DNA from: Amphiscolops sp. MND2022
Taxonomy: Eukaryota
DNA length: 64,000 bases
Assembly: GCA_964187785.1 (NCBI GenBank)
Contig: OZ076409.1
Span: 71,240,001-71,304,000, forward strand
Direction of reading: 5' to 3'
Positions 1-24,600 of the stretch are shown here, piece by piece. Each line of letters opens with the position of its first letter. The first letter of the stretch is position 1. The notes under the pieces are model-generated. The model saw only the letters and a list, made by a program, of their open reading frames with translations, was not told where the DNA came from and did no database searches. Made by a program: the position numbers and the translations under genes.

Positions 1-83
1 CAACGCCCCATCGTCCGTGGGCATGCCGAGGCATGCCCTTCGACGACGTATGCCAAATGCCCAGTGCCACGCAGTCTTTCCCC
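1..83 (+). repeat. Partial right end (core and tail) of the preceding unit, same type as the end of unit 84-1366
   Basis: Sequence matches 1284-1366 (caacgccccatcgtccgtgggcatgcc...gcagtctttcccc). Confidence 0.9.
19..38. promoter_or_regulatory. Palindromic 20-mer GGGCATGCCGAGGCATGCCC matching the p53-family response element (representative of 36 copies)
   Basis: 19/20 match to RRRCWWGYYY-RRRCWWGYYY with zero spacer. Binding is not demonstrated. Confidence 0.45.
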
Positions 84-1366
84 GCTAGGTGGCCGTGTCT
101 TTTCGACGTGCTTTTGCATTGAGGAGTGGGTAGGGCCCCGCGACGACCTAGAAGAATTGGATGCTCACCGAAACGTGCAGAATTCTACGAGATCTCATAG
201 TTTGAGCCATACGATTTTTCTGAAATTTGGCATGTGGCCTGGAATTGGTGAGTAGGTAAAACGTGTAGAAAGTAATTTTTCCCAAATTCCACTGTGAGAG
301 GAGATATGGGCAAATAACGGACCCAAAAATGGCAAAAATGCACATTTTTCAACTTTGTCAGCCAATATCTCTTTTCCAGGTGCCCGTAGCGTTCCGCACG
401 TGGACATCAATATTGCTCAGCGCTGTTGGAGGAGTGCGTGGACAAATTTTGGTTTAAATCGGACTTAAACTTGACGAGAAATTAACGGTTTTTTGGGCGT
501 TTCCGGGGTAAATTTTTTAACGGTCCAGCTTATCTTTGCCATTTTTTCGAAAATGTACATGCCTAAAGGCCTCCCCCTGGCCGAATTTACTCCCAGCAAA
601 CCCATTTGGCCCTAAATACGGAGTTTCAGCGTTCCAGCATTCCGGGGCGGAAAGTTGTGGGACTTGGAAAAATTTCAAAATTTTTTCAAAAATTTTTTTC
701 CCGTTTTCCGGGCCCCCAATGAAGGGGAACGAGCCCCCAACCAGTATTTTGAGTGAATTCATGTGGAACGCCCATGTTTGGAGGAGAAAAATGCCGTTTA
801 GAACATCTTTTTATCTTAACTTGACATTGACTTATGACGTTTTGAATGTGATGTTAGGATATATGAAGCATGTTAAAAGTTGAAGTTTTGAGTCTTTATC
901 TCATCGGAAAACCATTGAGATACAAGCAGTTTTGCTAAAAACGATTTTCATTGTAGGTTAGCAGAGTATTAGTACACTTTGATGTCATTTGAGTATATTT
1001 TTCTTCTATATAATAACTGTTTTTATGTATTTATTCCAATTTATCTCATCTTTTAACATCAAGCAGTTGAGTACATTTCATCTCCCTTTCGGGGGAGATG
1101 AGAATGTACTCGCTAAAAACCTAATGCTATGGCGCCAATGTTTGAATGGGAAGTTTTCTATGCTTTGAAAAAAGTTATTTTTAATTACTTGATTTTTTAA
1201 AACAATAATTAACATGAAGTACATTACTTGCTCCTACTACTACCACCATACATCTCTAACGTCAACACGCCCCCTGCTTGCATCAACGCCCCATCGTCCG
1301 TGGGCATGCCGAGGCATGCCCTTCGACGACGTATGCCAAATGCCCAGTGCCACGCAGTCTTTCCCC
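84..1366 (+). mobile_element. Short-class unit, subfamily S1 (1283 bp), putative non-autonomous element
   Basis: Bounded by junctions at 84 and 1367. Shares the aaaggcctccccctggcc...catttggccctaaatacggagtttcagcgttc block and the GAGTACATT hairpin with other short units. Left ~400 bp is distinct. Confidence 0.6.
1069..1111 (+). other. Short-class subterminal hairpin GAGTACATTYCATCYCCC-loop-GGGAGATGAGAATGTACTC (representative)
   Basis: Present in all 8 short units (1069, 16185, 17472, 18748, 20019, 21300, 41295, 44545), starting 298-311 bp before the next junction. Confidence 0.88.
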
Positions 1367-2901
1367 GCTAGGTGCGGGGGGGAAACCCCATCCCTTATCT
1401 TGGAGGATTCGGGTAGGGTCCTGAATCCGAGTTCAGTGCCGCCAGCTCTCAGTAGAAATCTGGGCATTTTTTTGCGATCTCGTGATCTAACCATAGGATT
1501 TTAAAGTTGGAGCGGCCCCCACCAGATTTTCCAAAGTTATTCGCCCCCCACCGGGTTCCAGCGTGATTGAAATATTTTGACGGGGTACACGGGCGACCGT
1601 TAGGGGTCATTTTGGGGGTAAAATTTATAAAAGTTCGCATAACTTTTTTCCTGTTGGTTTAAAACTTTAGGACCCTGCTAAAAGTTTCTTGACCATGTTG
1701 CAGGGGCCCCGGAGGTCCAAACCAAATTTTTCTATCTTGAAGCTATCTCCAAGTACCCCCCCGCCCAAACCGTTATTTTTCCGGAAACGCCGGTTTTTGA
1801 CCCGGAAGGAGTCGTCTGAGCGCGGGGTCGTTAGGTGATGTATTGGGGACGGCCTTGAGACGAAGCGGGGGATATATAGTTTGCCGACCCCAGTTTACCC
1901 CCCGCACGGGAAATGACCGTTATATGAGCGGGAAAAATGCCCCCTCCACGTTTTACCGCTATTTCCGGTGTGAAGGAGTGGGAGTAGCGCGTCGGGTGTT
2001 ATATAACAAAAGTAGGTTTAGACAAGGACCTATCGGAAACATGTAGTTTGGGACCCCCTGGTCCAACCCGTTAGCGGAAAATGGGGCTTCCGCCTCCTTT
2101 TTTTACTGCTAAAACCGTAAAATGGGCATTGAGGGGTAAATATCTCGTGAACGCGTGGAGCAATCGTGTCCATCACTACTACAAGGTTTCATACCCATGA
2201 TATGGTGCCTTCAGGGGGGCAAACAGATTTCCGCTATCTATCACCGTTACCGACTTGGCCCCCCAGCCTAACCGCTATGTGACCGGAAATGTCACTTTTT
2301 GAGCCCAAAGGGTCGGTCCCAGCCGGGGAACGTTAGGTTACTTATTGTAGTACTCAATGAGACGAGTTGGGGGATATAGTTTCAGTCACCCCCCGTTACC
2401 CCTTGGGACCGGAAATGACCGTTATGTGGGTAAAATTGCCATTTTTGTCCTATTTGGAGGGCATTTAGATGCGGAAGGAGTGGTAATAGGTGCTTGGACA
2501 CTATATGATGTAAAAGAGGACGTGATGCGAGCATTCGAAATTAACCGTTATGTTGACCCCTAAGTCCCCCTGGTACCGTAAATGACCGGAAATGGTCTAA
2601 TTTTGTGTTTATTGGGTACAAATGTTTGGTATTTTATGAATTAAAGTACATGGAAGGTGTTTCAAAGGCCTCCAGAAGTGAACATCGTCATGAAACCTTG
2701 TGGGGGGTAACGGTATATAACACCGGAAGTCCAAACCGTTGGTCACAGAATAGGTTTTTTGGTTTCAAAATGTCTTTAGGCGTAGTTTTATGGGTTGAAT
2801 CGTCATAATATCAACTATTACGGACATTTTTCGGAAAAAAAATTTTTTCACATTAGTTTCAGAGACCTCCAATGCTTCAGTCAACATAACCGTTACATTT
2901 T

Positions 2902-2945
2902 GATAGCCTTTCAAGTTGGCCTGGCGTCAACTTGGAAGGGCTATC
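2902..2945 (+). other. Long-class subterminal hairpin GATAGCCTTTCAAGTTGGC-loop-GTCAACTTGGAAGGGCTATC (representative)
   Basis: ~19-bp imperfect stem, nearly invariant in long units, starting ~455 bp before the next junction in the units measured. Confidence 0.85.
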
Positions 2946-3244
2946 CTTCTAAAATCGTTAATCAAGAGTGTTTTTGGGTAGGTATATGTTGCATTAGTAC
3001 CAATTATAGCTTCATCAACAGTTTGCCAACGGCAAAAACGATGTCGTGATAATTCCGTTATAAGAATATTAATTAAAAAATTGTTTACAAAGTTGATTTT
3101 TTTCATTTGAAATGTGTCCTAATGCCACCAAATTGAATAAAATAATAAATGGTATTGACTAAAACTAAATAACATTGAAAAAGAAGATCAACATTTTTAT
3201 TAGGTCTCATTATGGAAGCTGAAACCTCACGTTTTAACTTGATT

Positions 3245-3366
3245 AACGTCAACGCCACATACTTTACATCAACGCCCACCGTCTGTGGGCATGCCGAGGC
3301 ATGCCCTTCGACGACGTATACCAAACAACCTCCATATCTACACCCGATTGCGGTAGCGGCTAGGTG
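3245..3366 (+). other. Representative conserved core (36 copies): two TCAACGCC repeats, palindrome, TTCGACGACGTAT, variable tail, GCTAGGTG
   Basis: The only block conserved in sequence between long and short units. Seen directly at every junction. Confidence 0.92.
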
Positions 3367-6300
3367 CGGGGGGGAAACCCCATCCCTTATCTTGGAGGAT
3401 TCGGGTAGGGTCCTGAATCCGAGTTCAGTGCCGCCAGCTCTCAGTAGAAATCTGGGAAATTTTTTGCGATCTCGTGATCTAACCATAGGATTTTAAAGTT
3501 GGAGCGGCCCCCACCAGATTTTCCAAAGTTATTCGCCCCCCACCGGGTTCCAGCGTGATTGAAATATTTTGTCGGGGTACACGGGCGACCGTTAGGGGTC
3601 ATTTTAGGGGTAAAATTCATATTGGGCCACATAACTTTTTTTCTGTTGATTTAAAACTTTAGGACCCTGCTAAAAGTTTCTTGACCATGTTGCAGGGGCC
3701 CCGGAGGTCCAAACCAAATTTTTCTATCTTGAAGCTATCTCCAAGTACCCCCCCGCCCAAACCGTTATTTTTCCGGAAACGCCGGTTTTTGACCCGGAAG
3801 GAGTCGTCTGAGCGCGGGGTCGTTAGGTGATGTTTTGGGGACGGCCTCGAGACGAAGCGGGGGATATATAGTTTGCCGATCCCAGTTTACCCCCCGCACG
3901 GGAAATGACCGTTATATGAGCGGGAAAAATGCCCCCCTCCACGTTTTACCGCTATTTCCGGTGTGAAGGAGTGGGAGTAGCGCGTCGGGTGTTATATAAC
4001 AAAAGTAGGTTTAGACAAGGACCTATCGAAAACATGTAGTTTGGGACCCCCTGGACCAACCCGTTAGCGAGAAATGGGGCTTCCGCCTCCTTTTTTTACT
4101 GCTAAAACCGTAAAATGGGCATTGAGGGGTAAATATCTCGTGAACGCGTGGAGCAATCGTGTCCATCACTACTACAAGGTTTCATACCCATGATATGGTG
4201 CCTTCAGGGGGGCAAACAGATTTCCGCTATCTATCACCGTTACCGACTTGGCCCCCCAGCCTAACCGCTATGTGACCGGAAATGTCACTTTTTGAGCCCA
4301 AAGGGTCGGTCCCAGACGGGGAACGTTAGGTAACTTATTGTAGTACTCAATGAGACGAGTTGGGGGATATAGTTTCAGTCACCCCCCGTTACCCCTTGGG
4401 ACCGGAAATGACCGTTATGTGGGTAAATTTGCAATTTTTATACTTTTTCAAGTGTATTTAGGTGCGGAAGGAGTGGTAATAGGTGCTTGGACACTATATG
4501 AGGTGAGGGAGGACGTGAGGCGAGCATTCGGAAATAACCGTTATGTTGACCCTAAAGTCCCCCTGGTACCGTAAACGACCGGAAATGGTCAAATTTTGTG
4601 TTTTTAGGGTACAAATGATTAGAATTTTATGGAAAAAAGTACCTGGTCGGTGTTTCAACGGCTTGCAGTAGTGAACATAGTCATGAAACCTTGTGGGGGG
4701 TAACGGTATATAGCACCGGAAGTCCAAACCGTTGGAGACAGGATAGGTATTTTGGTTTTAAAATGCCTATAAGCGTACTTTTGTGGGTTGAATCGTTTCA
4801 ATATCGACTAATTTGGATATTTTTTTGACATTGAAGGTTTTTTCAATAGTTTCAGGGACCTCCAATGCTTCAATCAATATAACCGTTACCTTATGATAGC
4901 CTTTCAAGTTGGCCTGGTGTCAACTTGGAAGGGCTATCCTTCGAAAATCGTAATTCAAGTGTGTTTTTGAGTACGTTTTTATTACTTTAATATCAATTAG
5001 AGCCTAATCATTAGTTTGCCAACGACAAAAACTATGACGTGATGATACCGTTAGTAGAAGAATAGTTAACAATTTGTTGACAAAATTGATTTTTTGCATT
5101 TTAAATGTTTCCTAAATGCCAGGAAAACAATTTATCTAATGAATGGTACTGATTGAACCCAAGTATCATTTGAAAAAAGTTAAACATTGTTTTTTCGTTT
5201 CATTATGGAAGCTGAAACCTCACGTTTTAGGTCACTTAACGTCAACGCCACATACTTTACATCAACGTCCGCCGTCTGTGGGCATGCCGAGGCATGCCCT
5301 TCGACGACGTATACCAATTACATATATATCTACACCCACCCGCGGTAGCAGCTAGGTGCGGGGGGGTAACCCCAATAAATATATTGGAGGATTCGGGTAG
5401 GGTCCTGAATCCGATTTTAACTCTAATAGCTATCGATAGGAAATCTTGCAAAAATTTCGGGATCTCGTGATCTAACCATAGGATTTTAAAGTTGGAGCGG
5501 CCCCCACCAGATTTTCCGAAAATTAGCGCCCCCCACCGGGTTCCATACCCCGGGAAATTTTTTTCTGGCCACACGGGCGACCGTTAGGGGGTCATTTTAG
5601 GGGTAAAATTCATATTGGGCCACATAACTTTTTTTCTGTTGATTTAAAACTTTGGAACCCTGCTAAAAGTTTCTTGACCGTGTTGCAGGGGCCCCGAAGG
5701 TCCAAACCAAATTTTTCTATCTTGAAGCTATCTCCAAGTACCCCCCCGCTCAAACCGTTATTTTTCCGGAAACGCAGGTTTTTGACCCGGAAGGAGTCGT
5801 CTGAGCGCGGGGTCGTTAGGTGATGTATTGGGGACGGCCTTGAGACGAAGTGGGGGACAAGTAGTTTGCCAACCTCAATTTACCCCCCGGACGGGAAATG
5901 ACCGTTATATGAGCGTGAAAAATGCCCCCCTCCACGTTTTACCGCTATTTCCGGTGTGAAGGAGTGGGAGTAGCGCGTCGGGTGTTATATAACAAAAGTA
6001 GGTTTAGACAAGGACCTATCGGAAACATGTAGTTTGGGACACACTGGACCAACCCGTTAGCGGGAAATGGGGCTTCCGCCTCCTTTTTTTAGTGCTAAAA
6101 CCGTAAAATGGGCATTGAGGGGTAAATATCTCGTGAACGCGTGGAGCAATCGTGTCCATCACTACTACAAGGTTTCATACCCATGATATGGTGCCTTCAG
6201 GGGGGCAAACAGATTTCCGCTATCTATCACCGTTACCGACTTGGCCCCCCAGCCTAACCGCTATGTGACCGGAAATGTCACTTTTTGAGCCCAAAGGGTC

Positions 6301-9300
6301 GGTCCCAGCCGGGGAACGTTAGGTAACTTATTGTAGTACTCAATGAGACGAGTTGGGGGATATAGTTTTAGTCACCCCCCGTTACCCCTTGGGACCGGAA
6401 ATGACCGTTATGTGGGTAAAATTGCAATTTTTATACTTTTTCAAGTGTATTTAGGTGCGGAAGGAGTGGTAATAGGTGCTTGGACACTATATGAGGTAAG
6501 GGAGGACGTGAGGCGTGCATTCGGAAATAACCGTTATGTTGACCCTAAAGTCCCCCTGGTACCGTAAACGACCGGAAATGGTCAAATTTTGTGTCTATTG
6601 GGTACAAATGTTTTGTATTTTGTAGATAAAAGTATCTATTAGGTGTTTCGACGGTCTACAGTAGTGAACATAGTCATGAAACCTTGTGGGGGGTAACGGT
6701 ATATAGCACCGGAAGTCAAAACGTTGGAGACAGGATAGGTTTTTTGGTTTTAAAATGTCTTTCGGCGTAATTTTTCCGACTCTTGTGGACTATTTTTAAA
6801 AATTAAAGTTTTTCCATATAGTTTCAGAGACTCCGAAACCTCAACCAACATAACCGTTACCTTATGATAGCCTTTCAAGTTGGCCTGGTGTCAACTTGGA
6901 AGCGCTATCCTTCTGAAATCGTTAATCAAGAGTGTTTTTGGGTAGGTATATATTGCATTAGTACCAATTAGAGCTTCATCAACAGTGTATCAACGACAAA
7001 AACTATGCCGTCATGATTCCGTTATTAGAATCATAGTGAGCAAATTGTTGAAAAAATGGTTTTTTCCATACAAAATGTGTCCTAAATGCCAGGCAACCTA
7101 TTTACCTAACAAATGGTATTAATTGGAATGTTTGTAACAGATTTATAAAAGTTCAAATTGATAATTACATTTCATTATGGAAGCTGAAACGTCATATTTT
7201 AGTTTAATTAACGTCAACGCCACACACTTTACATCAACGCACACCGTCTGTGGGCATGCCGAGGCATGCCCTTCGACGACGTATGACAAATCCATATCAA
7301 ACGACGCCCGTACATCCCGGGCTAGGTGCGGGGGGATAACCCCAACAAATATATTGGAGGATTCGGGTAGGGTCCTGAATCCGATTTTAACTCTAATAGC
7401 TATCGATAGGAAATCTTGCAAAAATTTCGGGATCTCGTGATCTAACCATAGGATTTTAAAGTTGGAGCGGCCCCCACCAGATTTTCCGAAAATTAGCGCC
7501 CCCCACCGGGTTCCAGCGTGATTGAAATATTTTGACGGGGTACACGGGCGACCGTTAGGGGTCATTTTGGGGGTAAAATTTATATCCGGTCGCATAACTT
7601 TTTTTCTGTTGATTTAAAACTTTGGAACCCTGCTAAAAGTTTCTTGACCGTGTTGCAGGGGCCCCGAAGGTCCAAACCAAATTTTTCTATCTTGAAGCTA
7701 TCTCCAAGTACCCCCCCGCTCAAACCGTTATTTTTCCGGAAACGCAGGTTTTTGACCCGGAAGGAGTCGTCTGAGCGCGGGGTCGTTAGGTGATGTATTG
7801 GGGACGGCCTTGAGACGAAGTGGGGGACAAGTAGTTTGCCAACCTCAATTTACCCCCCGGACGGGAAATGACCGTTATATGAGCGTGAAAAATGCCCCCC
7901 TCCACGTTTTACCGCTATTTCCGGTGTGAAGGAGTGGGAGTAGCGCGTCGGGTGTTATATAACAAAAGTAGGTTTAGACAAGGACCTATCGGAAACATGT
8001 AGTTTGAGACCCCCTGGACCAACCCGTTAGCGGGAAATGGGGCTTCCGCCTCCTTTTTTTAGTGCTAAAACCGTAAAATGGGCATTGAGGGGTAAATATC
8101 TCGTGAACGCGTGGAGCAATCGTGTCCATCACTACTACAAGGTTTCATACCCATGATATGGTGCCTTCAGGGGGGCAAACAGATTTCCGCTATCTATCAC
8201 CGTTCCCGACTTGGCCCCCCAGCCTAACCGCTATGTGACCGGAAATGTCACTTTTTGAGCCCAAAGGGTCGGTCCCAGCCGGGGAACGTCAGGTAACTTA
8301 TTGTAGTACTCAATGAGACGAGTTGGGGGATATAGTTTCAGTCACCCCCCGTTACCCCTTGGGACCGGAAATGACCGTTATGTGGGTAAAATTGCAATTT
8401 TTATACTTTTTCAAGTGTATTTAGGTGCGGAAGGAGTGGTAATAGGTGCTTGGACACTATATGAGGTAAGGGAGGACGTGAGGCGAGCATTCGGAAATAA
8501 CCGTTATGTTGACCCTAAAGTCCCCCTGGTACCGTAAACGACCGGAAATGGTCAAATTTTGTGTCTATTGGGTACAAATGTTTTGTATTTTGTAGATAAA
8601 AGTATCTATTAGGTGTTTCGACGGTCTACAGTAGTGAACATAGTCATGAAACCTTGTGGGGGGTAACGGTATATAGCACCGGAAGTCAAACCGTTGGAGA
8701 CAAGATAGGTTTTTTGGTTTTAAAATGTCTTTCGGCGTAATTTTTTCGACTCTTGTGGACTATTTTTAAAAATTAAAGTTTTTCCATATAGTTTCAGAGA
8801 CTCCGAAACCTCAACCAACATAACCGTTACCTTATGATAGCCTTTCAAGTTGGCCTGGTGTCAACTTGGAAGCGCTATCCTTCTGAAATCGTTAATCAAG
8901 AGTGTTTTTGGGTAGGTATATATTGCATTAGTACCAATTAGAGCTTCATCAACAGTGTATCAACGACAAAAACTATGCCGTCATGATTCCGTTATTAGAA
9001 TCATAGTGAGCAAATTGTTGAAAAAAATGGTTTTTTCCATACAAAATGTGTCCTAAATGCCAGGAAACCTATTTACCTAACAAATGGTATTAATTGGAAT
9101 GTTTGTAACAGATTTATAAAAGTTCAAATTGAATATTACATTTCATTATGGAAGCTGAAACGTCATATTTTAGTTTAATTAACGTCAACGCCACACACTT
9201 TACATCAACGCACACCGTCTGTGGGCATGCCGAGGCATGCCCTTCGACGACGTATGACAAATCCTTATCAAACGACGCCCGTACATCCCGGGCTAGGTGC

Positions 9301-12300
9301 GGGGGGGTAACCCCAACAAATATATTGGAGGATTCGGGTAGGGTCCTGAATCCGATTTTAACTCTAATAGCTATCGATAGGAAATCTTGCAAAAATTTCG
9401 GGATCTCGTGATCTAACCATAGGATTTTAAAGTTGGAGCGGCCCCCACCAGATTTTCCAAAATTATTCGCCCCCCACCGGGTTCCAGCGTGATTGAAATA
9501 TTTTGTCGGGGTACACGGGCGACCGTTAGGGGTCATTTTGGGGGTAAAATTTATATAATGTCGCATAACTTTTTTCCTGTTGGATTAAAACTTTGGGACC
9601 CTGCTAAAAGTTTCTTGACCGTGTTGCGGGGGCTCCGGAGGTCCAAACCAAATTTTTCTATCTTGAAGCTATCTCCAAGTACCCCCCCGCCCAAACCGTT
9701 ATTTTTCCGGAAACGCAGGTTTTTGAGCCGGAAGGAGTCGTCTGAGCGCGGGGTCGTTAGGTGATGTATTGGGGACGGCTTCGAGACGAAGCGGGGGACG
9801 TGTAGTTTGCCGACCCCAGTTTACCCCCCGGACGGGAAATGACCGTTATTTGAGCGGGAAAAATGTCCCCCTCCACGTTTTACCGCTATTTCCGGTGTGA
9901 AGGAGTGGGAGTAGCGCGTCGGGTGTTATATAACAAAAGTAGGTTTAGACAAGGACCTATCGGAAACATGTAGTTTGGGACCCCCAGGCCCAACCCGTTA
10001 GCGGGAAATGGGGCTTCCGCCTCCTTTTTTTACTGCGAAAACCGTAAAATGGGCACTGAGGGGTAAATATCTCGTGAACCCGTGGAGCAATCGTGTCCAT
10101 CACTACTACAAGGTTTCATACCCATGATATGGTGCCTTCAGGGGGGCAAACAGATTTCCGCTATCTATCACCGTTACCGACTTGGCCCCCCAGCCTAACC
10201 GCTATGTGACCGGAAATGTCACTTTTTGAGCCCAAAGGGTCGGTCCCAGCCGGGGAACGTTAGGTAACTTATTGTAGTACTCAATGAGACGAGTTGGGGG
10301 ACATAGTTTCAGTCACCCCCCGTTACCCCTTGGGACCGGAAATGACCGTTATGTGGGTAAAATTGCAATATATGTACTTTTTAAAGGACTTTTAGACGCG
10401 GAAGGAGTGGTAATAGGTGCTTGGACACTATATGAGGTAAGGGAGGACGTGAGGCGAGCATTCGGAAATAACCGCTATGTTGACCCTAAAGTCCCCCTGG
10501 TACCGTAAACGACCGGAAATGGTCAAATTTTGTGTCTATTGGGTACAAATGTTTAGTATTTTGTAGATAAAAGTATCTATTAGGTGTTTCGACGGCCTGC
10601 AATAGTGAACATAGTCATGAAACCTTGTGGGGGGTAACGGGGTATATAGCACCGGAAGTCCAAACCGTTGGACACAGGATAGGTTTTTGGTTTGAAAATG
10701 TCTTTCGGCGTACTTTTGTCGACTATTATGGACTATTATTAAAAATTAAAGTTTTTCCATATAGTTTCAGAGACTCCGAAATCTCAACCAACATAACCGT
10801 TACACTTTGATAGCCTTTCAAGTTGGCCTGGTGTCAACTTGGAAGCGCTATCCTTCTGAAATCGTTAATCAATAGTGTTTTTGGGTAGGTATATATTGCA
10901 TTAGTACCAATTAGAGCTTCATCAACAGTGTATCAACGACAAAAACTATGCCGTCATGATTCCGTTATTAGAATCATAGTGAGCAAATAGTTGAAAAAAA
11001 TGGTTTTTTCCATACAAAATGTGTCCTAAATGCCAGGAAACCTATTTACCTAACAAATGGTATTAATTGGAATGTATGTAACAGATTTATAAAAGTTCAA
11101 ATTGAATATTACATTTCATTATGGAAGCTGAAACGTTATATTTTAGTTTGATTAACGTCCACGCCACATACTTTACATCAACGCCCACCGTCTGTGGGCA
11201 TGCCGAGGCATGCCCTTCGACGACATATACCAAATACATACCTAACGACGCCCGTACATCCCGGGCTAGGTGCGGGGGGGAAACCCCAACAAAATTTTTG
11301 GAGGATTCGGGTAGGGTCCTGAATCCGAGTTCAGTGCTGCCAGCTTTCGTTAAGAAAATTTGGATAGGATTCGGGATCTCGTGATCTAACCATAGGATTT
11401 TAAAGTTGGAGCGGCCCCCACCAGATTTTCCGAAAATTAGCGCCCCCCACCGGGTTCCATACCCCGGAAAATTTTTTTCTGGCCACACGGGCGACCGTTA
11501 GGGGGTCATTTTAGGGGTAAAATTCATATTGGGCCACATAACTTTTTTTCTGTTGATTTAAAACTTTGGGACCCTGCTAAAAGTTTCTTGGCCGTGTTGC
11601 AGGGGCCCCTGAGGTCCAAACCAAATTTTTCTATCTTGAAGCTATCTCCAAGTACCCCCCCGCCCAAAACGTTATTTTTCCGGAAACGCAGGTTTTTGAC
11701 CCGGAAGGAGTCGTCGGAGCGCGGGGTCGTTAGGTGATGTATTGGGGACGGCTTTGAGACGAAGTGGGGGACATGCAGTTTGCCAACCCCAGTTTACCCC
11801 CTGGACGGGAAATGACCGTTATATGAGCGGGAAAAATGCCCCCCTCCACGTTTTACCGCTATTTCCGGTGTGAAGGAGTGGGAGTAGCGCGTCGGGTGCC
11901 ATATATCAAAAGTAGGTTTAAACAAGGACCTATCGGAAACATGTGGTTTGGGACCCCCTGGACCAACCCGTTAGCGGGAAATGGGACTTCCGCCTCCTTT
12001 TTTTACGGTTAAAAACGTAAAATGGGCATTGAGGGGTAGATATCTCGTGAACGCGTGGAGCAATCGTGTCCATCACTAGTACAAGGTTTCATGCCCATCA
12101 TATGGTGCCTTCAGGGGGGCAAACAGATTTCCGCTATCTATCACCGTTACGGACTTGGCCCCCCAGCCTAACCGTTAAGTGACCGGAAATGTCATATTTT
12201 GAGCCCAAAGGGTCGGTCTCAGCCAGGGAACGTTAGGTAACTTATTGTAGTACTCATTGAGACGAGTTGGGGGACATAGTTTCAGTCACCCCCCGTTACC

Positions 12301-15207
12301 CCTTAGGACCGGAAATGACCGTTATGTGAGTAAAATTGCCATTTTTGTCTTATTTGAAGGGTATTTAGATGCGGAAGGAGTGGTAATAGGTGCTTGGACA
12401 CTAAATGAGGTAAGGGAGGACGTGAGGCGAGCATTCAGACATAACCGTTATGTTGACCCTAAAGTCCCCCTGGTACCGTAAACGACCGGAAATGGTCAAA
12501 TTTTGTGTCTATTGGGTACAAATGTTTGGTATTTTGTAAATAAAAGTATCCATTAGGTGTTTCGACGGTTTGCAGTAGTGAACATAGTCATGAAACCTTG
12601 TGGGGGGTAACGGTATATAGCACCGGAAATCCGAACCGTTGGAGACAGGATAGGTTTTTTGGTTTTAAAATGTCTTTCGGCGTACTTTTGTCGACTATTA
12701 TGGACTATTTTTAAAAATTAAAGTTTTTCCATATAGTTTCAGAGACTCCGAAACCTCAACCAACATAACCGTTACCTTATGATAGCCTTTCAAGTTGGCC
12801 TGGTGTCAACTTGGAAGGGCTATCCTTCAAAAATCGTTAATCAAGTGTGTTTTTGGGTATGTTTTTATCATTTTAGAATCAATTAGAGCTCCAAGAAAAG
12901 TTTGCCAACGACAAAAACTATGTCGTAATGATTCCGTTATTAGAATGATGGTTAACAAAATGTTGATAAAGTTGATTTTTTACATTTCAAATGTGTCCTA
13001 AAAGCCAGAAAACTTCTTTACCAAAAAATGGTATTGATTGAATTGTATATAACAGGTAATAAAAGTTCAAAATTGTTATTACGTTTCATTATGGAAGCTA
13101 AAACTTCAAAATATAGTTTTAAAACGTCAACGCCACAAACTTTTTATCAACGGCCACCGTCCGTGGGCATGCCGAGGCATGCCCTTCGACGACGTATACC
13201 AAACACCGTCCATATCTACACCCACCCGCGGTAGCAGCTAGGTGCGGGGGGGAAACCCCATCCCTTATCTTGGAGGATTCGGGTAGGGTCCTGAATCCGA
13301 GTTCAGTGCCGCCAGCTCTCAGTAGAAATCTGGGAAATTTTTTGCGATCTCGTGATCTAACCATAGGATTTTAAAGTTGGAGCGGCCCCCACCAGATTTT
13401 CCAAAGTTATTCGCCCCCCACCGGGTTCCAGCGTGATTGAAATATTTTGTCGGGGTACACGGGCGACCGTTAGGGGTCATTTTAGGGGTAAAATTTATAT
13501 CCGGTCGCATAACTTTTTTCCTGTTGGTTTAAAACTTTGGGACCCTGCTAAAAGTTTCTTGACCGTGTTGCGGTGGCTCCGGAGGTCCAAACCAAATTTT
13601 TCTATCTTGAAGCTATCTCCAAGTACCCCCCCGCCCAAACCGTTATTTTTCCGGAAACGCCGGTTTTTGACCCGGAAGGAGTCGTCTGAGCGCGGGGTCG
13701 TTAGGTGATGTTTTGGGGACGGCCTCGAGACGAAGCGGGGGATATATAGTTTGCCGACCCCAGTTTACCCCCCGCACGGGAAATGACCGTTATATGAGCG
13801 GGAAAAATGCCCCCCTCCACGTTTTACCGCTATTTCCGGTGTGAAGGAGTGGGAGTAGCGCGTCGGGTGTTATATAACAAAAGTAGGTTTAGACAAGGAC
13901 CTATCGGAAACATGTAGTTTGGGACCCCCTGGACCAACCCGTTAGCGGGAAATGGGGCTTCCGCCTCCTTTTTTTTACTGCTAAAACCGTAAAATGGGCA
14001 TTGAGGGGTAAATATCTCGTGAACGCGTGGAGCAATCGTGTCCATCACTACTACAAGGTTTCATACCCATGATATGGTGCCTTCAGGGGGGCAAACAGAT
14101 TTCCGCTATCTATCACCGTTACCGACTTGGCCCCCCAGCCTAACCGCTATGTGACCGGAATTGTCACTTTTTGAGCCCAAAGGGTCGGTCCCAGCCGGGG
14201 AACGTTAGGTAACTTATTGTAGTACTCAATGAGACGAGTTGGGGGATATAGTTTCAGTCACCCCCCGTTACCCCTTGGGACCGGAAATGACCGTTATGTG
14301 GGTAAAATTGCAATTTTTATACTTTTAAGTGTATTTAGGTGCGGAAGGAGTGGTAATAGGTGCTTGGACACTATATGAGGTAAGGGAGGACGTGAGGCGA
14401 GCATTCGGAAATAACCGTTATATTGACCCTAAAGTCCCCCTGGTACCGTAAACGACCGGAAATGGTCAAATTTTGTGTCTATTGGGTACAAATGTTTAGT
14501 ATTTTGTAGATAAAAGTATCTATTAGGTGTTTCGACGGTCTGCAATAGTGAACATAGTCATGAAACCTTGTGGGGGGTAACGGGGTATATAGCACCGGAA
14601 GTCCAAACCGTTGGACACAGGATAGGTTTTTGGTTTGAAAATGTCTTTCGGCGTACTTTTGTCGACTATTATGGACTATTATTAAAAATTAAAGTTTTTC
14701 CATATAGTTTCAGAGACTCCGAAACCTCAACCAACATAACCGTTACATTTTGATAGCCTTTCAAGTTGGCCTGGTGTCAACTTGGAAGCGCTATCCTTCT
14801 GAAATCGTTAATCAAGAGTGTTTTTGGGTAGGTATATATTGCATTAGTACCAATTAGAGCTTCATCAACAGTGTATCAACGACAAAAACTATGCCGTCAT
14901 GATTCCGTTATTAGAATCATAGTGAGCAAATTGTTGAAAAAAATGGTTTTTTCCATACAAAATGTGTCCTAAATGCCAGGAAACCTATTTACCTAACAAA
15001 TGGTATTAATTGGAATGTATGTAACAGATTTATAAAAGTTCAAATTGAATATTACATTTCATTATGGAAGCTGAAACGTCATATTTTAGTTTAATTAACG
15101 TCAACGCCACACACTTTACATCAACGCACACCGTCTGTGGGCATGCCGAGGCATGCCCTTCGACGACGTATGACAAATCCATATCAAACGACGCCCGTAC
15201 ATCCCGG

Positions 15208-16493
15208 GCTAGGTGGCCGGAAATTTTTTTTTCAGCAAAATCTTTGCCATTGGGGGAGGGGCCCCGGATGGCCAGTAGTACGGGATAGCTTCCTACCAAA
15301 TCCAGGCGGAAAAAACGTGATTTCGGAAACTAGCCGTCAGAATTTGCTCAAATTTTGCATACGGCTTCCTATAACAATCCTAAGAACTAATCCCTACTGG
15401 CATTTTGCCCAAAAAACGCAAAAAGTTGGTCAAAATCTTAGTTTTTTGGTCAAAAAATGGCAATTTTTCGAAAAAATTTTTTTTCAGAGACAATTACTCG
15501 TAACTGGTTCACCCAGCGCAAAAACGCCTAGCTGATTTATTGTTGGGCACTTCATGAGGAGTGCGTATACAAATTTTCGTCCAGATCGGAAAAAAAATGA
15601 CTAAGTATTAGCCGGAATTCGGACGCATTTTTTCGCAAATTTTTGAAAACCTAGTCTATCTCTGCCGTTTTTTGCCCAGATTTTTTTCCAGGTCCTCTCC
15701 TAAAGGCCTCCCCTGGCCGGTTTACTTCCCAGAAAAACCATTTGGCCCTAAATACGGAGTTTCAGCGTTCTAGCATTCCCGGGCGAAAAGATGTGGGACT
15801 TAGAAAAAATTCAAAATTTTTCAAAAAATTTTTTTTTCGTTTTCCGGCCCCCCAATGAAGGGGAACGACCCCCAACGAGGATTTTTGGTGAATTCACGTG
15901 GAAAGGCCTTGTTTTGTGGAGAAAATTGCCGTTTAGAGCGACTTTTTATCTTAACTTGACGTTGACCTCTGTCGTTTTGAATTTGATATTAGTATGTGTT
16001 GAGCATGTGAAAAGTTGATGATTTCAGTTGTTCTCTCGTGTTCAAGCCATTGAGATACAAGCGGTAGTGATCAAAATGTGATTTATCGCAATTTGGTGGT
16101 GCTTTTGGTGTATTTTGATTCTTTTAAATAAAAAGTTGTTCTTTATATATTTGGTGTATTGATTCAAATTAACAAGAAACAGTTGAGTACATTTCATCTC
16201 CCCCCTTGTGGGGGAGATGAGGATGTACCCGCTAAATGACACGCACAATGGCCCAATTTTATTTTTATGCGACGTTCTCTAGGCTTTTGCGCAAGCCCAC
16301 TAATATTTAGACTGGTTTCCTTTTCTTTTACTCCAAAATTTTCCGTACTAACCACCTTACGCACCACCAGCTCAACGTAACATCTCTAACGTCAACGCCA
16401 CACACTCTCACTAACGCCCACCGTCCGTGGGCATGCCGAGGCATGCCCTTCGACGACGTATGCCAAATAGCGCCACAGGGCGCAAACATTCCC
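15208..16493 (+). mobile_element. Short-class unit, subfamily S2 (1286 bp)
   Basis: Starts GCTAGGTGGCCGGAAATT. Divergent left half. Carries the shared central block (~15700-15800) and the GAGTACATT hairpin at 16185. Confidence 0.6.
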
Positions 16494-19400
16494 GCTAGGT
16501 GCCGGGATTTCTATTCGATAAAGTATGTGGCGCGCCTTGGGTAGGGTCCCTTGCGCGCTCTTGGGTATGGTGTTCACCAGCTAGGAAACAGGGGTCGATT
16601 TTTCGGGATCTCCTAAACTAGCCACACGATTTGGCTGAAATTTGGCACACGTACTCCCCTCGGCACGGTGGAGATGATTTCCTACTGACGTTTTTCCCGC
16701 AAAATTTTTTTTGTTGTCCAAAATAACGGTTTTTGGGGTAAAATTTTGAATTTTTTTTAAATTTTATCTTATATCTCGCCATGGGTTTACGCTAGCGCTT
16801 CAAAACCCTGCTAAAGAAAGCTTGCAAACTGTCTCAGGAATGCTGTGTGAAATTTTCAGCTCAATCGGACTCAAACTCGGGGAGATATAGCGTTTTTCCG
16901 GAGCGGGGGGGTTTCATTTTTCTAACGGTCCAGCTTATCTTTGCCATTTTTTCGAAAATGCACTCGCCTAAAGGCCTCCCCTGGCCAGTTTTATTCCCAG
17001 CAAAACCATTTGGCCCTAAATACGGAGTTTCAGCGTTCCAGCATTCCCGGGCGAAAAGTTGTGGGACTTAGAAAAGTTCAAAAATTTTCAAAAAATTTTT
17101 TTTCCGTTTTCCGCCCTCCCCCCCTAGAGGAAAAGACCCCCCAACCAGTAATTTGAGTGAATTCATGTGGAAAGGCCATGTTTAGAGGAGAAAAATGCCG
17201 TTTAGAACGTCTTTTTATCTTGGCTCAACGTTGACTTATGACGTTTTGAAGGTGATGTTTGGAGGTGTAAAGCACGTGAATAGTAAACGTTATGAGTATT
17301 TATCTGATCTGAAAGCCACTGAGATGAATATGGTTTGCTCAAAACGTAATTCATGGCAGTTTGGCAATCAATCAACACCCTTTGTTGTCGTTGGACATAC
17401 TTTTTTGTTGTTATAATAAAAAATTTTGTGTATTTATTCATTTTTTTCTCATCAAATAACTTGAAACAGTTGAGTACATTCCATCCCCCCCTTCCGGGGG
17501 AGATGAGAATGTACTCGCAAAAAGCACCGAACTACGGCCCTTACCTTCCTGAGCTACGCAGTATAAGGATTACATATTGGTTCCGACATTTTCATAGAGT
17601 TAAATCTTGGTAATCTGTCTGGATATGCAGAAAAACCAGCACTTGCTTTTTTATACCACGTTGCTTACAACGACAATTATTTTATATCAACGCCCCCATA
17701 TTTATCAACGCCCCCCGTCCGTGGGCATGCCGAGGCATGCCCTTCGACGACGTATACCAAGATATGTTCGAGCGCGTTAGCCTAGGTGCCGGGATTTTCT
17801 ATTCGACAAGTTTGCGCGCCTTGGGGAGGGTCCCTTTGCGCGCTTTAAGATCCAGGTGTTTCCAACTCCTAAACGGGCATGTGATTTCGACGATCTCCTA
17901 AACTAGCCATACGATTTGGCTGAAATTTGGCACACGTACCCCCCTCGGCACGGTGAAGATGATTTCCTACTGACGTTTTTCCCGCTAAACATTTTTTGTT
18001 GACCAAAATAACGGTTTTTGGGGTAAAATTTTCAACTTTTTTTAAATTTCATCTTATATCTCGCCACGGGTACACGCTAGCGCTTCCAAACCTTGCTGAC
18101 GAAAGTTTGCAAACTGTCTCAGGAATGCTGTGTGAAATTTACAGCTCAATCGGACCTAAACTCGAGGAGATATAGCGTTTTTCCGGAGCGGGGGGGTTTC
18201 ATTTTTCTAACGGTCCAGCTTATCTTTGCCATTTTTTCGAAAATGCACTCGCCTAAAGGCCTCCCCTGGCCGGTTTTATTCCCAGCAAAACCATTTGGCC
18301 CTAAATACGGAGTTTCAGCGTTCCAGCATTCCCGGGCGAAAAGTTGTGGGACTTAGAAAATTTCAAAAATTTTCAAAAATTTTTTTTTCCGTTATTTGGG
18401 CCCCCAAAGTGGGGGAAAAGACCCCCCAACCAGTAAAGCAAGTGAATGCATGTGGAAAGCCCTTAGTTAGATGAGAAAAATGGCGTTTAGAACGTCTTTT
18501 TATCTTGGCTCAACGTTGTCTTATGACGTTTTGAAGGTGACCGTTAGATACGGAAAATTGATGTTTTGAGTCTTTATCCCATCTGAAAGCCACTGAGATA
18601 CAACATGTTTTGCTCAAAACGTATTTCATTGCAGTTTCGCTGTCCATTAACACCCTTTGGTGTCTTTTGACGTATTTTTCTTTTCTATAATAACATTTTT
18701 TCTGTGTATTTATTCATTTGTTTTTCATCAAATAACTTGAAACAGTTGAGTACATTCCATCTCCCTTCCCGGGGGAGATGAGAATGTACTCGCTAAAGGC
18801 CGCGAACTACGGTCTATATCTTCCCCAACACAAAAGAGATTGAAAATTGTTTCATTTTGTGGAAAAAATTCTTCTTTTTGTACACTGTGACTCGACAAAG
18901 TGAACGTTTCTTACCTATTTTGAAACTTCCCTCACCAAAAACCATCTCTAACGTCAGCGCCCCCCTACTTGCATCAACGCCCCCCGTCCGTGGGCATGCC
19001 GAGGCATGCCCTTCGACGACGTATACCAAGATATACCTGGAGCGCGGTAGCAGCTAGGTGCCGGGATTTTCTATTCGACAAGTTTGCGCGCCTTGGGGAG
19101 GGTCCCTTTGCGCGCTTTAAGATCCAGGTGTTTCCAACTCCTAAACGGGCATGTGATTTCGACGATCTCCTAAACTAGCCATACGATTTGGCTGAAATTT
19201 GGCACACGTACCCCCCTCGGCACGGTGAAGATGATTCCCTACTGACGTTTTGCTCGCTAAACATTTTTTGTTGACCAAAATAACGGTTTTTGGGGTAAAT
19301 TTTTGAACTTTTTTTAAATTTCATCTTATATCTCGCCACGGGTACACGCTAGCGCTTCCAAACCTTGCTGACGAAACCTTGCAAACTGTCTCAGGAATGC

Positions 19401-21610
19401 TGTGTGAAATTTTCAGCTCAATCGGACCTAAACTCGGGGAGATATAGCGTTTTTCCGGAGCGGGGGGGTTTCATTTTTCTAACGGTCCAGCTTATCTTTG
19501 CCATTTTTTCGAAAATGCACTCGCCTAAAGGCCTCCCCTGGCCGGTTTTATTCCCAACAAAACCATTTGGCCCTAAATACGGAGTTTCAGCGTTCCAGCA
19601 TTCCCGGGCGAAAAGTTGTGGGACTTAGAAAAGTTCAAAAATTTTCAAAAAAAATTTTTCCGTTATTTGGGCCCTCAAAGTGGGGGAAAAGACCCCACAA
19701 CCAGTAAAGCAAGTGAATGCATGTGGAAAGCCCTTGTTTAGACGAGAAAAATGCCGTTTAGAACGTCTTTTTATCTCAACTTGACATTGACTTTTGTCGT
19801 TTTGAAGGTGACCGTTAGATACGGAAAATTGATGTTTTGAGTATTTATCCCATCTGAAAGCCATTGAGATACAACATGTTTTGCTCAAAACGTGTTTCAT
19901 TGCAGTTTCGCTGTCCATTATCACCCTTTGGTGTCTTTTCACGTAATTTTCGTTTCTATAATAACAATTTTTTTGTGTATTTATTCATTTTTTTCTCATC
20001 AAATAACTTGAAACAGTTGAGTACATTCCATCTCCCTTCCCGGGGGAGATGAGAATGTACTCGCTAAAGGTCAGGAACTACGGTCTATATCTTCCACAAC
20101 ACAAAAGGGATTTCAAATGGTTTCAGTTTGTCGCAGAAAACTTCTTTTTGCCCTCTGTGACTCGACAAAATGAACGTTTCTTACTTACATTGAAACTCAG
20201 CATACCACAACTCATCTCTAACGTCAGCGCCCCCCTACTTGCATCAACGCCCACCGTCCGTGGGCATGCCGAGGCATGCCCTTCGACGACGTATACCAAG
20301 ATATACCTGGAGCGCGGTAGCCGCTAGGTGCCGGGATTTTCTATTCGACAAGTTTGCGCGCCTTGGGGAGGGTCCCTTTGCGCGCTTTAAGATCCAGGTG
20401 TTTCCAACTCCTAAACGGGCATGTGATTTCGACGATCTCCTAAACTAGCCATACGATTTGGCTGAAATTTGGCACACGTACCCCCCTCGGCACGGTGAAG
20501 ATGATTCCCTACTGACGTTTTTTCCGCTAAACATTTTTTGTTGACCAAAATAACGGTTTTTGGGGTAAAATTTTCAACTTTTTTTAAATTTCATCTTATA
20601 TCTCGCCACGGGTTTACGCTAGCGCTTCCAAATCTTGCTGACGAAACCTTGCAAACTGTCTCAGGAATGCGGTGTGAAATTTTCAGCTCAATCGGACTCA
20701 AACTCGGGGAGATATAGCGTTTTTCCGGAGCGGGGGGGTTTCATTTTTCTAACGGTCCAGCTTATCTTTGCCATTTTTTCGAAAATGCACTCGCCTAAAG
20801 GCCTCCCCTTGCCGGTTTTATTCCCAGCAAAACCATTTGGCCCTAAATACGGAGTTTCAGCGTTCCAGCATTCCCGGGCGAAATGTTGTGGGACTTAGAA
20901 TTTTTCAAAAATTTTCAAAAAAATTTTTTTCCGTTATTTGGGCCCCCAAAGTGGGGGAAAAGACCCCCCAACCAGTAAAGCAAGGGAATGCATGTGCAAA
21001 GCCCTTGTTTAGAGGAGAAAAATGCCGTTTAGAACGTCTTTTTATCTTGGCTCAACGTTGACTTATGACGTTTTGAAGGTGGTGTTTGGAGGTGTAAAGC
21101 ACGTGAATAGTAAACATTATGGGTATTTATCTGATCTAAAAGCCATTGAGATGCAATATGGTTTGCTCAAAACGTAATTCATTGCAGTTTGGCAATCAAT
21201 CAACACCCTTTGTTGTCGTTTGACATACTTTTTTGTTGTTATAATAAAAAAATTTGTGTATTTGTTCATTTTTTTCTCATCAAATAGCTTGAAACAGTTG
21301 AGTACATTCCATCCCCCCCTTCCGGGGGAGATGAGAATGTACTCGCAAAAAGCACCGGACTACGGCCCTTACCTTCCCGAGCTACGCAGTATAAGGATTA
21401 CATATTGGTCCCGACATTTTCATAGAGTTAAATCTTGGTAATCTGTCTGGATATGCAGAAAAATCAGCACGTGCCTTTCAATACCAAGTTGCTTACAACG
21501 ACAATTATTTTATATCAACGCCCCCATATTTATCAACGCCCCCCGTCTGTGGGCATGCCGAGGCATGCCCTTCGACGACGTATACCAAGATATACATAAG
21601 CGCGGTAGCC
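16494..21610 (+). repeat. Four short-class units, subfamily S3 (1287, 1272, 1270, 1288 bp)
   Basis: Start (G/C)CTAGGTGCCGGGATTT at 16494, 17781, 19053, 20323. Closely similar to each other, with mosaic left and right halves. Confidence 0.93.
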
Positions 21611-24600
21611 GCTAGGTGCGGGGGGGTAACCCCAACAAATATATTGGAGGATTCGGGTAGGGTCCTGAATCCGATTTTAACTCTAATAGCTATCGATAGG
21701 AAATCTTGCAAAAATTTCGGGATCTCGTAATCTAACCATAGGATTTTAAAGTTGGAGCGGCCCCCACCAGATTTTCCGAAAATTAGCGCCCCCCACCGGG
21801 TTCCAGCGTGATTGAAATATTTTGTCGGGGTACACGGGCGACCGTTAGGGGTCATTTTAGGGGTAAAATTTATAAAAGTTCGCATAACTTTTTTCCTGTT
21901 GGTTTAAAACTTTAGGACCCTGCTAAAAGTTTCTTGACCATGTTGCAGGGGCCCCGGAGGTCCAAACCAAATTTTTCTATCTTGAAGCTATCTCCAAGTA
22001 CCCCCCCGCTCAAACCGTTATTTTTCCGGAAACGCAGGTTTTTGACCCGGAAGGAGTCGTCTGAGCGCGGGGTCGTTAGGTGATGTATTGGGGACGGCCT
22101 TGAGACGAAGTGGGGGACAAGTAGTTTGCCAACCTCAATTTACCCCCCGGACGGGAAATGACCGTTATATGAGCGTGAAAAATGCCCCCCTCCACGTTTT
22201 ACCGCTATTTCCGGTGTGAAGGAGTGGGAGTAGCGCGTCGGGTGTTATATAACAAAAGTAGGTTTAGACAAGGACCTATCGGAAACATGTAGTTTGGGAC
22301 CCCCTGGACCAACCCGTTAGCGGGAAATGGGGCTTCCGCCTCCTTTTTTTAGTGCTAAAACCGTAAAATGGGCATTGAGGGGTAAATATCTCGTGAACGC
22401 GTGGAGCAATCGTGTCCATCACTACTACAAGGTTTCATACCCATGATATGGTGCCTTCAGGGGGGCAAACAGATTTCCGCTATCTATCACCGTTACCGAC
22501 TTGGCCCCCCAGCCTAACCGCTATGTGACCGGAAATGTCACTTTTTGAGCCCAAAGGGTCGGTCTCAGCCAGGGAACGTTAGGTAACTTATTGTAGTACT
22601 CATTGAGACGAGTTGGGGGACATAGTTTCAGTCACCCCCCGTTACCCCTTGGGACCGGAAATGACCGTTATGTGGGTAAAATTGCAATTTTTATACTTTT
22701 TCAAGTGTATTTAGGTGCGGAAGGAGTGGTAATAGGTGCTTGGACACTATATGAGGTAAGGGAGGACGTGAGGCGAGCATTCGGAAATAACCGTTATGTT
22801 GACCCTAAAGTCCCCCTGGTACCGTAAACGACCGGAAATGGTCAAATTTTGTGTCTATTGGGTACAAATGTTTTGTATTTTGTAGATAAAAGTATCTATT
22901 AGGTGTTTCGACGGTCTACAGTAGTGAACATAGTCATGAAACCTTGTGGGGGGTAACGGTATATAGCACCGGAAGTCAAACCGTTGGAGACAGGATAGGT
23001 TTTTTGGTTTTAAAATGTCTTTCGGCGTAATTTTTTCGACTCTTGTGGACTATTTTTAAAAATTAAAGTTTTTCCATATAGTTTCAGAGACTCCGAAACC
23101 TCAACCAACATAACCGTTACCTTATGATAGCCTTTCAAGTTGGCCTGGTGTCAACTTGGAAGCGCTATCCTTCTGAAATCGTTAATCAAGAGTGTTTTTG
23201 GGTAGGTATATATTGCATTAGTACCAATTAGAGCTTCATCAACAGTGTATCAACGACAAAAACTATGCCGTCATGATTCCGTTATTAGAATCATAGTGAG
23301 CAAATTGTTGAAAAAAATGGTTTTTTCCATACAAAATGTGTCCTAAATGCCAGGAAACCTATTTACCTAACAAATGGTATTAATTGGAATGTTTGTAACA
23401 GATTTATAAAAGTTCAAATTGAATATTACATTTCATTATGGAAGCTGAAACGTCATATTTTAGTTTAATTAACGTCAACGCCACACACTTTACATCAACG
23501 CACACCGTCTGTGGGCATGCCGAGGCATGCCCTTCGACGACGTAAGACAAATACTTATCAAACGACGCCCGTACATCCCGGGCTAGGTGCGGGGGGGAAA
23601 CCCCATCCCTTATCTTGGAGGATTCGGGTAGGGTCCTGAATCCGATCTTAGTTCGCCCAGCTCTCAGTAGAAATCTGGGAAATTTTTTGCGATCTCGTGA
23701 TCTAACCATAGGATTTTAAAGTTGGAGCGGCCCCCACCAGATTTTCCAAAGTTATTCGCCCCCCACCGGGTTCCAGCGTGATTGAAATATTTTGACGGGG
23801 TACACGGGCGACCGTTAGGGGTCATTTTGGGGGTAAAATTTATATCCGGTCGCATAACTTTTTTCCTGTTGGATTAAAACTTTGGGACCCTGCTAAAAGT
23901 TTCTTGACCGTGTTGCGGGGGCTCCGGAGGTCCAAACCAAATTTTTCTATCTTGAAGCTATCTCCAAGTACCCCCCCGCCCAAAACGTTATTTTTCCGGA
24001 AACGCAGGTTTTTGACCCGGAAGGAGTCGTCGGAGCGCGGGATCGTTAGGTGATGTATTGGGGACGGCCTTGAGACGAAGTGGGGGACATGCAGTTTGCC
24101 AACCCCAGTTTACCCCCCGGACGGGAAATGACCGTTATATGAGCGGGAAAAATGCCCCCCTCCACGTTTTACCGCTATTTCCGGTGTGAAGGAGTGGGAG
24201 TAGCGCGTCGGGTGCCATATATCAAAAGTAGGTTTAGACAAGGACCTATCGGAAACATGTGGTTTGGGACCCCCTGGACCAACCCGTTAGCGGGAAATGG
24301 GGCTTCCGCCTCCTTTTTTTACTGCTAAAACCGTAAAATGGGCATTGAGGGGTAAATATCTCGTGAACGCGTGGAGCTACGGTGTCCATCACTACTACAA
24401 GGTTTCATACCCATGATATGGTGCCTTCAGGGGGGCAAACAGATTTCCGCTATCTATCACCGTTACCGACTTGGCCCCCCAGCCTAACCGCTATGTGACC
24501 GGAAATGTCACTTTTTGAGCCCAAAGGGTCGGTCCCAGCCGGGGAACGTTAGGTAAATTATTGTAGTACTCAATGAGACGAGTTGGGGGATATAGTTTCA

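Follow-up and report, generated by a model that had tools for sequence, protein, structure and literature searches.

Organization of the array

The 64-kb stretch of DNA analysed here, to which we refer as the window, contains repeat units that follow each other in one direction and meet at a seven-base junction, CTAGGTG, which occurs 36 times on the plus strand and 0 times on the minus strand. Units were cut after CTAG (CTAG/GTG); this is a convention, and the true cut may fall elsewhere within the seven letters. Cut in this way, the array comprises 26 long units (L) of 1967-1996 bp and 8 short ones of 1270-1288 bp (for example 89-1371, 15213-16498 and 43574-44852), besides one deleted long unit of 878 bp and a last unit (T), starting at 62681, that is clipped by the window end. 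The short units are one S1, one S2, four S3 and two S4. The body of the L class is unrelated to that of the short class and the junction is common to both. The features are collected in Table 1.

Table 1. Position of the array and of the features identified in the window
Feature	Position	Strand	Remarks
Head-to-tail array	1..64000	+	36 junctions; continues past both window edges
Junction CTAG/GTG (example)	1368..1374	+	invariant, 36/36 junctions
L-type left hairpin	1405..1428	+	9-bp stem, one G.T pair
Conserved hairpin core (inner 3 bp and loop)	1411..1422	+	in all types except the last unit
Left hairpin, double compensatory change	46860..46883, 48854..48877, 52820..52843	+	
S1 left end	122..145	+	core retained, most of outer stem gone
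S2 left hairpin	15246..15272	+	outer stem GCCAT/ATGGC
S3 left hairpin	16530..16558	+	GCGCGC outer stem, internal loop
S3 hairpin variants	17814..17843, 40362..40390, 43605..43634		
Last-unit hairpin	62708..62742	+	15 bp, 3 G.T pairs, loop centre +45, sequence-unrelated
Right-end hairpin (example)	1302..1321	+	36 copies, 44-59 nt before junction
Internal bulged hairpin, short units	1069..1111	+	8/8 and L001; about 300 nt before right end
Internal bulged hairpin, long units	2902..2945	+	about 440 nt before right end
L right subterminal 14-mer	3253..3266	+	exact reverse complement of 16519-16532, ATIR-like
S3a left subterminal 14-mer	16519..16532	+	overlaps 5' arm of left hairpin; partial in S4 and last unit
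Deleted long unit	29535..30412	+	deletion starts after 29576, first base of hairpin loop

The more distant short types are homologous, with 59-67% identity. Each pair of them shows 65-119 gap columns, yet their lengths differ by at most 18 bp (p 0.03, 5 types; the test was prompted by the data and gives a lead only). The two size classes recur along the array, and the last unit, extrapolated beyond the window edge, would also reach about 2 kb; some constraint on size may be at work.

The longest ORF in the window has 159 aa, and no transposase ORF and no tRNA were found there. An Rfam search of positions 1-22000 and 40000-64000 (46 kb) gave one weak snoRNA match, far below threshold.

Other observations concern the bodies of the units. 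The deletion in the 878-bp unit removed 1.1 kb, with a short similar stretch close to both breakpoints. The last unit has internal segments in common with both S and L units. An island of about 100 bp is nearly invariant in the short types (about 580-670 and equivalents) and is without counterpart in L; it is recognisable in the last unit (63900-64000) and in L001 (135-215), a related locus described below. The L units hold an old internal duplication, 1757-1941 and 2259-2440, with a spacing of 502-503 bp and about 70% identity. Some motifs of the unit bodies are, we assume, similar to those of insect Helitron-type non-autonomous elements.

Left-end hairpin

The earlier note had described at the left end of the long units a hairpin GGATTCGGG-TAGGGT-CCTGAATCC, which we find at 1405-1428, together with a compensated form in a divergent part of the array, found at 46860, 48854 and 52820, and the stem letters of S2, S3 and S4, which are as that note gave them. 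It had also placed the loop A 46-49 bases from the junction, a distance counted from the C of CTAG. If the G of GTG is taken as the starting point, the A in the loop of GGG(T/G)AGGG lies at +44 in 28 units, +42 in 3, +45 in 2 and +43 in 1, a range of four positions; the rule holds in 34 of the 36 units, the exceptions being the last unit and the deleted one that starts at 29535. The last unit does carry an unrelated hairpin at the same offset, the most stable in its 1320 visible bases, but it is merely clipped by the window edge and is not a terminal unit as had been supposed. The foot of the left hairpin stands at +28 to +34.

A pattern made of the junction plus the core gave 33 matches in the window and 0 in 100 shuffles. 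When 36-nt hairpins were ranked by stability over the first 280 nt, the best one was centred, by its loop, at +44 to +47 in every one of the 10 types but S1. Windows that equal the left hairpin in stability occupy 0.1-3.9% of the unit in eight of nine types, whereas in S1 they occupy 38%. A covariance model trained on nine left ends found 34 places in the window and one in L001, all on the plus strand and at the same offset, the training rows among them matching by construction; it gave no match elsewhere up to E 5, and the last unit was not found by it. The comparison of the first 100 nt with shuffled sequence, which the earlier note had suggested, went against the hairpin: nine of ten types folded no better than the shuffles (z -1.0 to +1.7) and the last unit alone folded better (z -3.07). 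With 50-nt windows z was -1.0 to -3.9, and +0.95 in S1. The case for the left hairpin rests on position and covariation and not on stability, and on these grounds a left hairpin at a near-constant distance from the junction is confirmed as a real feature.

When the 12-nt core was kept fixed and the arms were shuffled, p was 0.001-0.022 in six of nine types, 0.06-0.08 in the two S4 types and 0.91 in S1. Combined over six lineages (S1, L, S2, S3a, S4b and L001) the arm shuffles gave p 7e-7, a value in which S3 and S4 are not independent since they are related. Of the 720 permutations in which left and right arms can be combined, the cognate pairing ranks third. In the 26 L copies 2 of 24 hairpin columns are variable, compared with 22 of 46 flanking ones (p 0.001), and these two columns form a single compensated pair; the hairpin is nearly invariant within the most variable end of L. 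A single consensus structure over all types catches 6 pairs only, because the stem registers differ among types. When the L register was imposed, 75% of the cells paired, which was equalled by 8 of 500 shuffles, and every slid control was lower.

The earlier proposal that structure and spacing, not sequence, are recognised at the left end is supported as regards structure and also, mainly owing to the last unit, as regards spacing. Its denial of a role for sequence was overstated, because the core is kept in every other intact unit, S1 is nearly stemless and the 100-nt folds were negative. In the alignment of nine types, eight positions of the core are the same in all nine, and the left end of S1 has the core with almost no stem (-2.2 kcal/mol). 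There is one exception each way, S1 having the core without the stem and the last unit the stem without the core. These sequences fit a core that is displayed on a stem of free sequence, and we infer from them that some factor may recognise the left hairpin. G.T pairs occur in 8 of 10 left hairpins when read on the plus strand and in 0 of 10 on the minus strand, a bias to which the richness of the left ends in G may contribute; neither the right hairpin nor the internal one of the S units has a clear strand bias in this respect.

As for the spacing, nine types have their next left landmark at +103-109, a position which, given its greater distance, is about as constant as that of the hairpin, so these nine types cannot tell a ruler from slow indel change, and low indel rates could lie behind their constant offset. 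The one case that separates the two is the last unit, in which that landmark has moved to +140, a shift of more than 30 nt, and the hairpin is still at +45. The right-end hairpin, by contrast, is placed more loosely.

Right-end, internal and subterminal features

The outer pair of the right-end hairpin is G-C in 32 copies and A-T in 4, and a compensated pair is present in L001 as well. The sequence of this hairpin can also be read as two abutting p53-type half-sites (36 matches when one free position is allowed). In many units two direct, iteron-like copies of TCAACGCC stand about 20 bp apart before it (3248-3275 and copies). The internal hairpins have 18-19 bp and are without common sequence between S and L, a second case in which structure is kept and sequence replaced. 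All three hairpins (left, right and internal) occur in every complete unit, the left one being weak in S1.

The ATIR-like complement between the L right end and the S3a left end is 14 of 14 bases, which was equalled by 8 of 2000 shuffles. A complement of similar geometry in L001 has 14 of 16 bases (0 of 2000 shuffles), and since the windows for this test were picked after L001 had been seen, both values are leads only. In the window types the longest such match within one unit is of 3-6 nt only; none was found at the L left ends, and the matches are between types and not inside a unit.

Reassortment at the junction

Linkage, measured as the correlation between the distance matrices of adjacent column blocks, is r 0.00 (p 0.45) over the 21 L-L junctions, comparing the last 51 with the next 57 columns. 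For adjacent blocks inside the units the values are 0.79 (left end) and 0.19-0.60 (right end). As linkage is zero across the junction, the units must have been joined one by one at CTAG/GTG, and its decay over about 1 kb inside the units indicates that homologous exchange occurs too. The closest kin are often distant in the array: units 5 and 35 differ by 0.9%, and units 22 and 33 by 1.5%. The units have been reassorted singly, in one orientation, at CTAG/GTG.

Some block duplication also takes place, to judge from the similarity of neighbours and from shared junction pairs. Neighbouring units are slightly more similar than random ones (0.095 compared with 0.111; p 0.02). There were 21 junction pairs with like upstream sides, and in 5 of them the downstream sides were alike too (1.9 expected), compared with 56 of 57 at a control boundary inside the unit.

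Where two types meet, the spacer that precedes CTAG is matched in 7 of 9 cases by another unit of the type lying upstream, and is unique in 2 of 9. All four switches from L to another type (15209, 40327, 43570 and 62677) follow one class of L right end, ending CCGGGCTAG, which accounts for 10 of the 27 L right ends (p 0.012, in a test that was also prompted by the data). This hints at an extended target preference behind the L right-end class found at switches. Stems spanning the junction average -5.3 kcal/mol against a background of -1.4 kcal/mol; junction-spanning pairing as a rule for the choice of partner was rejected, as the stems are not partner-specific (p 0.38).

Related sequences

A metagenome scan found one related locus, L001, which has a short-type right end and the junction CGAG/GTG; its left end is new and carries the core at +43, within a stem GGCGC/GCGCC. 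Run X1 (0.11 of sampled words) gave 21 records on 11200-23700, one of which spans the junction at 16498 and shows 5 gaps and 12 differences.

In viral contigs the right-hairpin pattern gave 0 matches and a shortened version of it 5, without further similarity, and the patterns for the internal hairpin and the conserved island gave 0 matches. One right-hairpin match in prokaryote genomes was discarded, being a terminator-like hairpin between genes with 24 matching bases only. One short unit, compared with plasmids and phages, had no match, which together with the absence of genes from 64 kb of repeats suggests a eukaryotic host. A scan with the junction-plus-core pattern gave three matches, in none of which was BLAST similarity found; the matches in the viral and prokaryote collections were all put down to chance. 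In one of the three, in the record L010 (201-257, minus strand), CTAG/GTG is followed by the core in a 5-bp stem at +48; we judged this to be chance, because the TAG is the stop codon of a phage gene, the site is single in the record and there is no right hairpin. It serves as a warning that look-alikes of the junction plus hairpin do arise. The right-hairpin sequence was absent from the literature searched, and that search, which did not take in Repbase, Dfam or most subscription papers, found no description of such a mixed array; the comparison is with text, and terminal alignments in figures or supplements may contain similar ends.

Possible origin of the array

We suggest, with a probability of roughly 0.55, that the units are non-autonomous elements moved as single-stranded DNA by a postulated HUH-type, Helitron2-like transposase encoded elsewhere. 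Such an enzyme, acting in trans, would bind the GGG(T/G)AGGG core, held up by any stem, and would nick the plus strand at the junction, about 30 nt upstream of the stem foot. The unit would then be peeled or copied, passage of the right hairpin would lead to termination at the next junction site, and the circle would insert at another junction, regenerating the site and adding to the mixed array. The left hairpin would be the left-end signal for the transposase.

The single orientation at 36 of 36 junctions, the zero linkage across the junction, the near-identical units at distant places and the spacers that agree with the upstream type at 7 of 9 mixed junctions support this reading. The covariation of the stems is consistent with it, as are the retention of core, offset and pairing with a new stem in L001, the plus-strand bias of the G.T pairs and the ATIR-like complements (14/14; 14/16 in L001). 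By analogy, the CTAG right end as in Helitrons and the hairpins at two ends as in Helitron2, as far as the available text of PMC3627910 describes them, point in the same direction, and so does the resemblance to IS608, for which the accessible part of PMC3201880 reports subterminal palindromes that are strand-specific and stand at a defined distance from the cleavage site. Against this reading weigh the presence of S1 in the array though stemless, the ATIR-like matches lying between types, and the block duplication seen in the likeness of neighbours and in 5 junction pairs instead of 1.9; the ends, moreover, appear to match no described HUH group, and L001 has CGAG and not CTRR. No transposase, autonomous or dispersed copy, or empty site was seen in the window.

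A 7-bp invariant core at which linkage is lost would also suit integron- or Crypton-like cassettes, where a tyrosine (or serine) recombinase would cut out circular units and put them back by a crossover inside CTAGGTG, by means of folded single strands or subterminal sites, and the long bulged internal hairpins of all complete unit types, as well as a target duplication that is not visible, agree with such cassettes. The core is, however, without flanking inverted binding arms, the hairpins lie 28-59 nt away from the crossover and do not contain it, the junction-spanning stems lack partner specificity (p 0.38), near-identical units at distant places require copying and not excision alone, and no recombinase ORF was seen in the window (longest ORF, 159 aa), all of which makes this explanation unlikely. 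The homology of the unit types (59-67% identity between the distant short ones), the other landmarks and total length held almost as tightly as the hairpin, and the slight likeness of neighbours would be natural in an ordinary satellite that grows by unequal crossing-over and has inherited hairpin and offset from one ancestor, with no present function. Unequal crossing-over nevertheless keeps linkage across a 7-bp junction, where the observed linkage is zero, and L units differ most at the very end in which their hairpin hardly varies; an ordinary satellite is disfavoured and seems to us very doubtful.

It is quite unlikely that the core is simply a double-stranded protein-binding site, with spacing and sequence read instead of structure and with stems that are incidental or secondary. 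The core invariant in 9 of 9 aligned types, its retention with the offset in stemless S1 and the shuffle-like folding of the first 100 nt in 9 of 10 types are in its favour, but four lineages or more have rebuilt the outer stem from unrelated letters, the stems covary, and a strong hairpin without the core occupies this place in the last unit. A signal at the RNA level is the most improbable of the explanations considered. It would make the junction an AG/GT splice-type site, of a spliced-leader-like gene or of recursively spliced GT...AG introns, and the hairpin an RNA stem-loop. Every unit does start with GT and end with AG, the plus-strand G.T pairs are compatible with RNA, a junction-spanning stem is possible at 37 of 37 junctions folded (several of them weak), and one L variant has before the stem a U-run which we take to be Sm-like. 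This U-run nevertheless varies freely among near-identical L copies, few parts vary as much as the candidate leader exon, L001 carries GAG and not YAG, the 46 kb scanned held no credible Rfam match, and the reassortment at the DNA level would be left unexplained.

Several more specific candidates were rejected. Arrays of spliced-leader RNA genes are defined by a conserved leader exon and an Sm site, and both segments vary among near-identical L copies. A group II intron was discarded because the GTGCG start occurs in L only and there was no Rfam match. Cut-and-paste elements of the DDE (MITE) type were set aside as no end-to-end inverted repeat was found among the five longest pairs in each of seven units or on inspection of the ends. 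Readings as kinetoplast-type minicircle blocks, as RSS-like or as piggyBac-like sequences were dropped since the matching features are lacking.

A more tentative possibility, rather improbable as it stands, is that the array represents a novel eukaryotic single-strand cassette system, with units of about 1.28 and 1.98 kb, three hairpins, a 7-bp site, a hairpin ruler and pairing-guided self-targeting. If so, the left hairpin would be the ruler that places the cut, an IS608-like logic in a eukaryote, the insertion site would be chosen in part by base pairing between the incoming left and the resident right end, and long mixed arrays would be built by repeated self-targeted insertion.

Comparison with known systems

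The ends of the units fail the defining end features of Helitron1, Helitron2 and IS608. According to the available text of the papers cited, HLE1 elements start with 5' TC (PMC11417382) and have a hairpin 10-12 nt from the 3' end (PMC5148889), whereas 36 of 36 units begin with GTG (or TG), the distance of the right hairpin from the end is 44-59 nt, and there is an extra hairpin at the left end. As regards the CTRR end of Helitron1, the junctions read CTAG in 36 of 36 cases in the window and CGAG in L001, the exact end depending on the cut. Like Helitron1, the units have a hairpin followed by a CTAG right end, and left ends that are more diverse than the right ones. Head-to-tail Helitrons and small tandem arrays have already been published (PMC12001565, PMC5148889 and PMC2267711, as far as their accessible text goes), including two maize Helitrons of different sequence arranged head-to-tail (PMC2267711).

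The likeness to Helitron2/Helentron elements (HLE2, HINE, DINE-1) lies in the non-coding nature of the units, a hairpin at both ends, compensated terminal stems, no visible target duplication, and an inverted-repeat element that overlaps the 5' arm of the left hairpin and has its partner shortly before the right one (in L001, and in S3a with L). In the portions of PMC3627910 and PMC4067079 available to us, Helitron2 is described as having a 5' ATIR and hairpin 0-4 nt from the 5' T, a 3' ATIR 20-60 nt from the end and insertion at TT or T(T/C). The hairpin foot is here at +28 to +34, the junction is CTAG/GTG and not TT, and the ATIR-like elements are displaced inward, to about +20 to +45 and -85 to -100. 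Moreover no ATIR within the unit, which in Helitron2 measures 8-18 nt, was found for L, S1, S2 and S3b. Long mixed arrays reassorted at a single junction were not found for Helitron2 in the parts of the literature that the search reached.

IS608, of the IS200/IS605 family, shares with the array strand-specific imperfect hairpins inside the ends (the right hairpin here being without strand bias), insertion 3' of a tetranucleotide and an abutted right-left junction. The distances differ, being 27-33 nt (left foot) and 44-59 nt (right) here against 19 and 10 in IS608, which is moreover a bacterial system, and no TnpA was seen, the window being without a long ORF. For CTAG the guide rule of IS608, with pairing at the fourth position, predicts AGNC, which stands in 0 of 10 left ends and, with wobble, in 1 of 10. 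The guide tetranucleotide of IS608, as set out in the available text of PMC3201880, lies at the hairpin foot and pairs with the cleavage site.

Replitrons resemble the units in being HUH-type eukaryotic elements with orientation-specific insertion 3' of a short target and a variable right end, but they are known from plants, algae and protists and a hairpin has been noted at their right end only. They have short direct terminal repeats (PMC10288648, accessible text), and a repeat of this type is not separable here, as a tandem junction repeat looks like a target site. The comparison with known elements also drew on the available part of PMC13085455.

Since terminal hairpins are expected in rolling-circle elements, the hairpin alone is unsurprising. 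What is unusual is the setting, in which units that may be no more than 59-67% alike and a long class of unrelated body are reassorted at one common junction, and the fact that the distance of the left hairpin is fixed while its stem is swapped. A stem without core, a core without stem, a double compensation and a deletion through the loop form a natural mutational series, which offers a means to ask what a eukaryotic HUH transposase reads at the left end. If the HUH reading is true, the array would show clearly that a satellite-like array can expand through site-specific insertion and not through unequal crossing-over.
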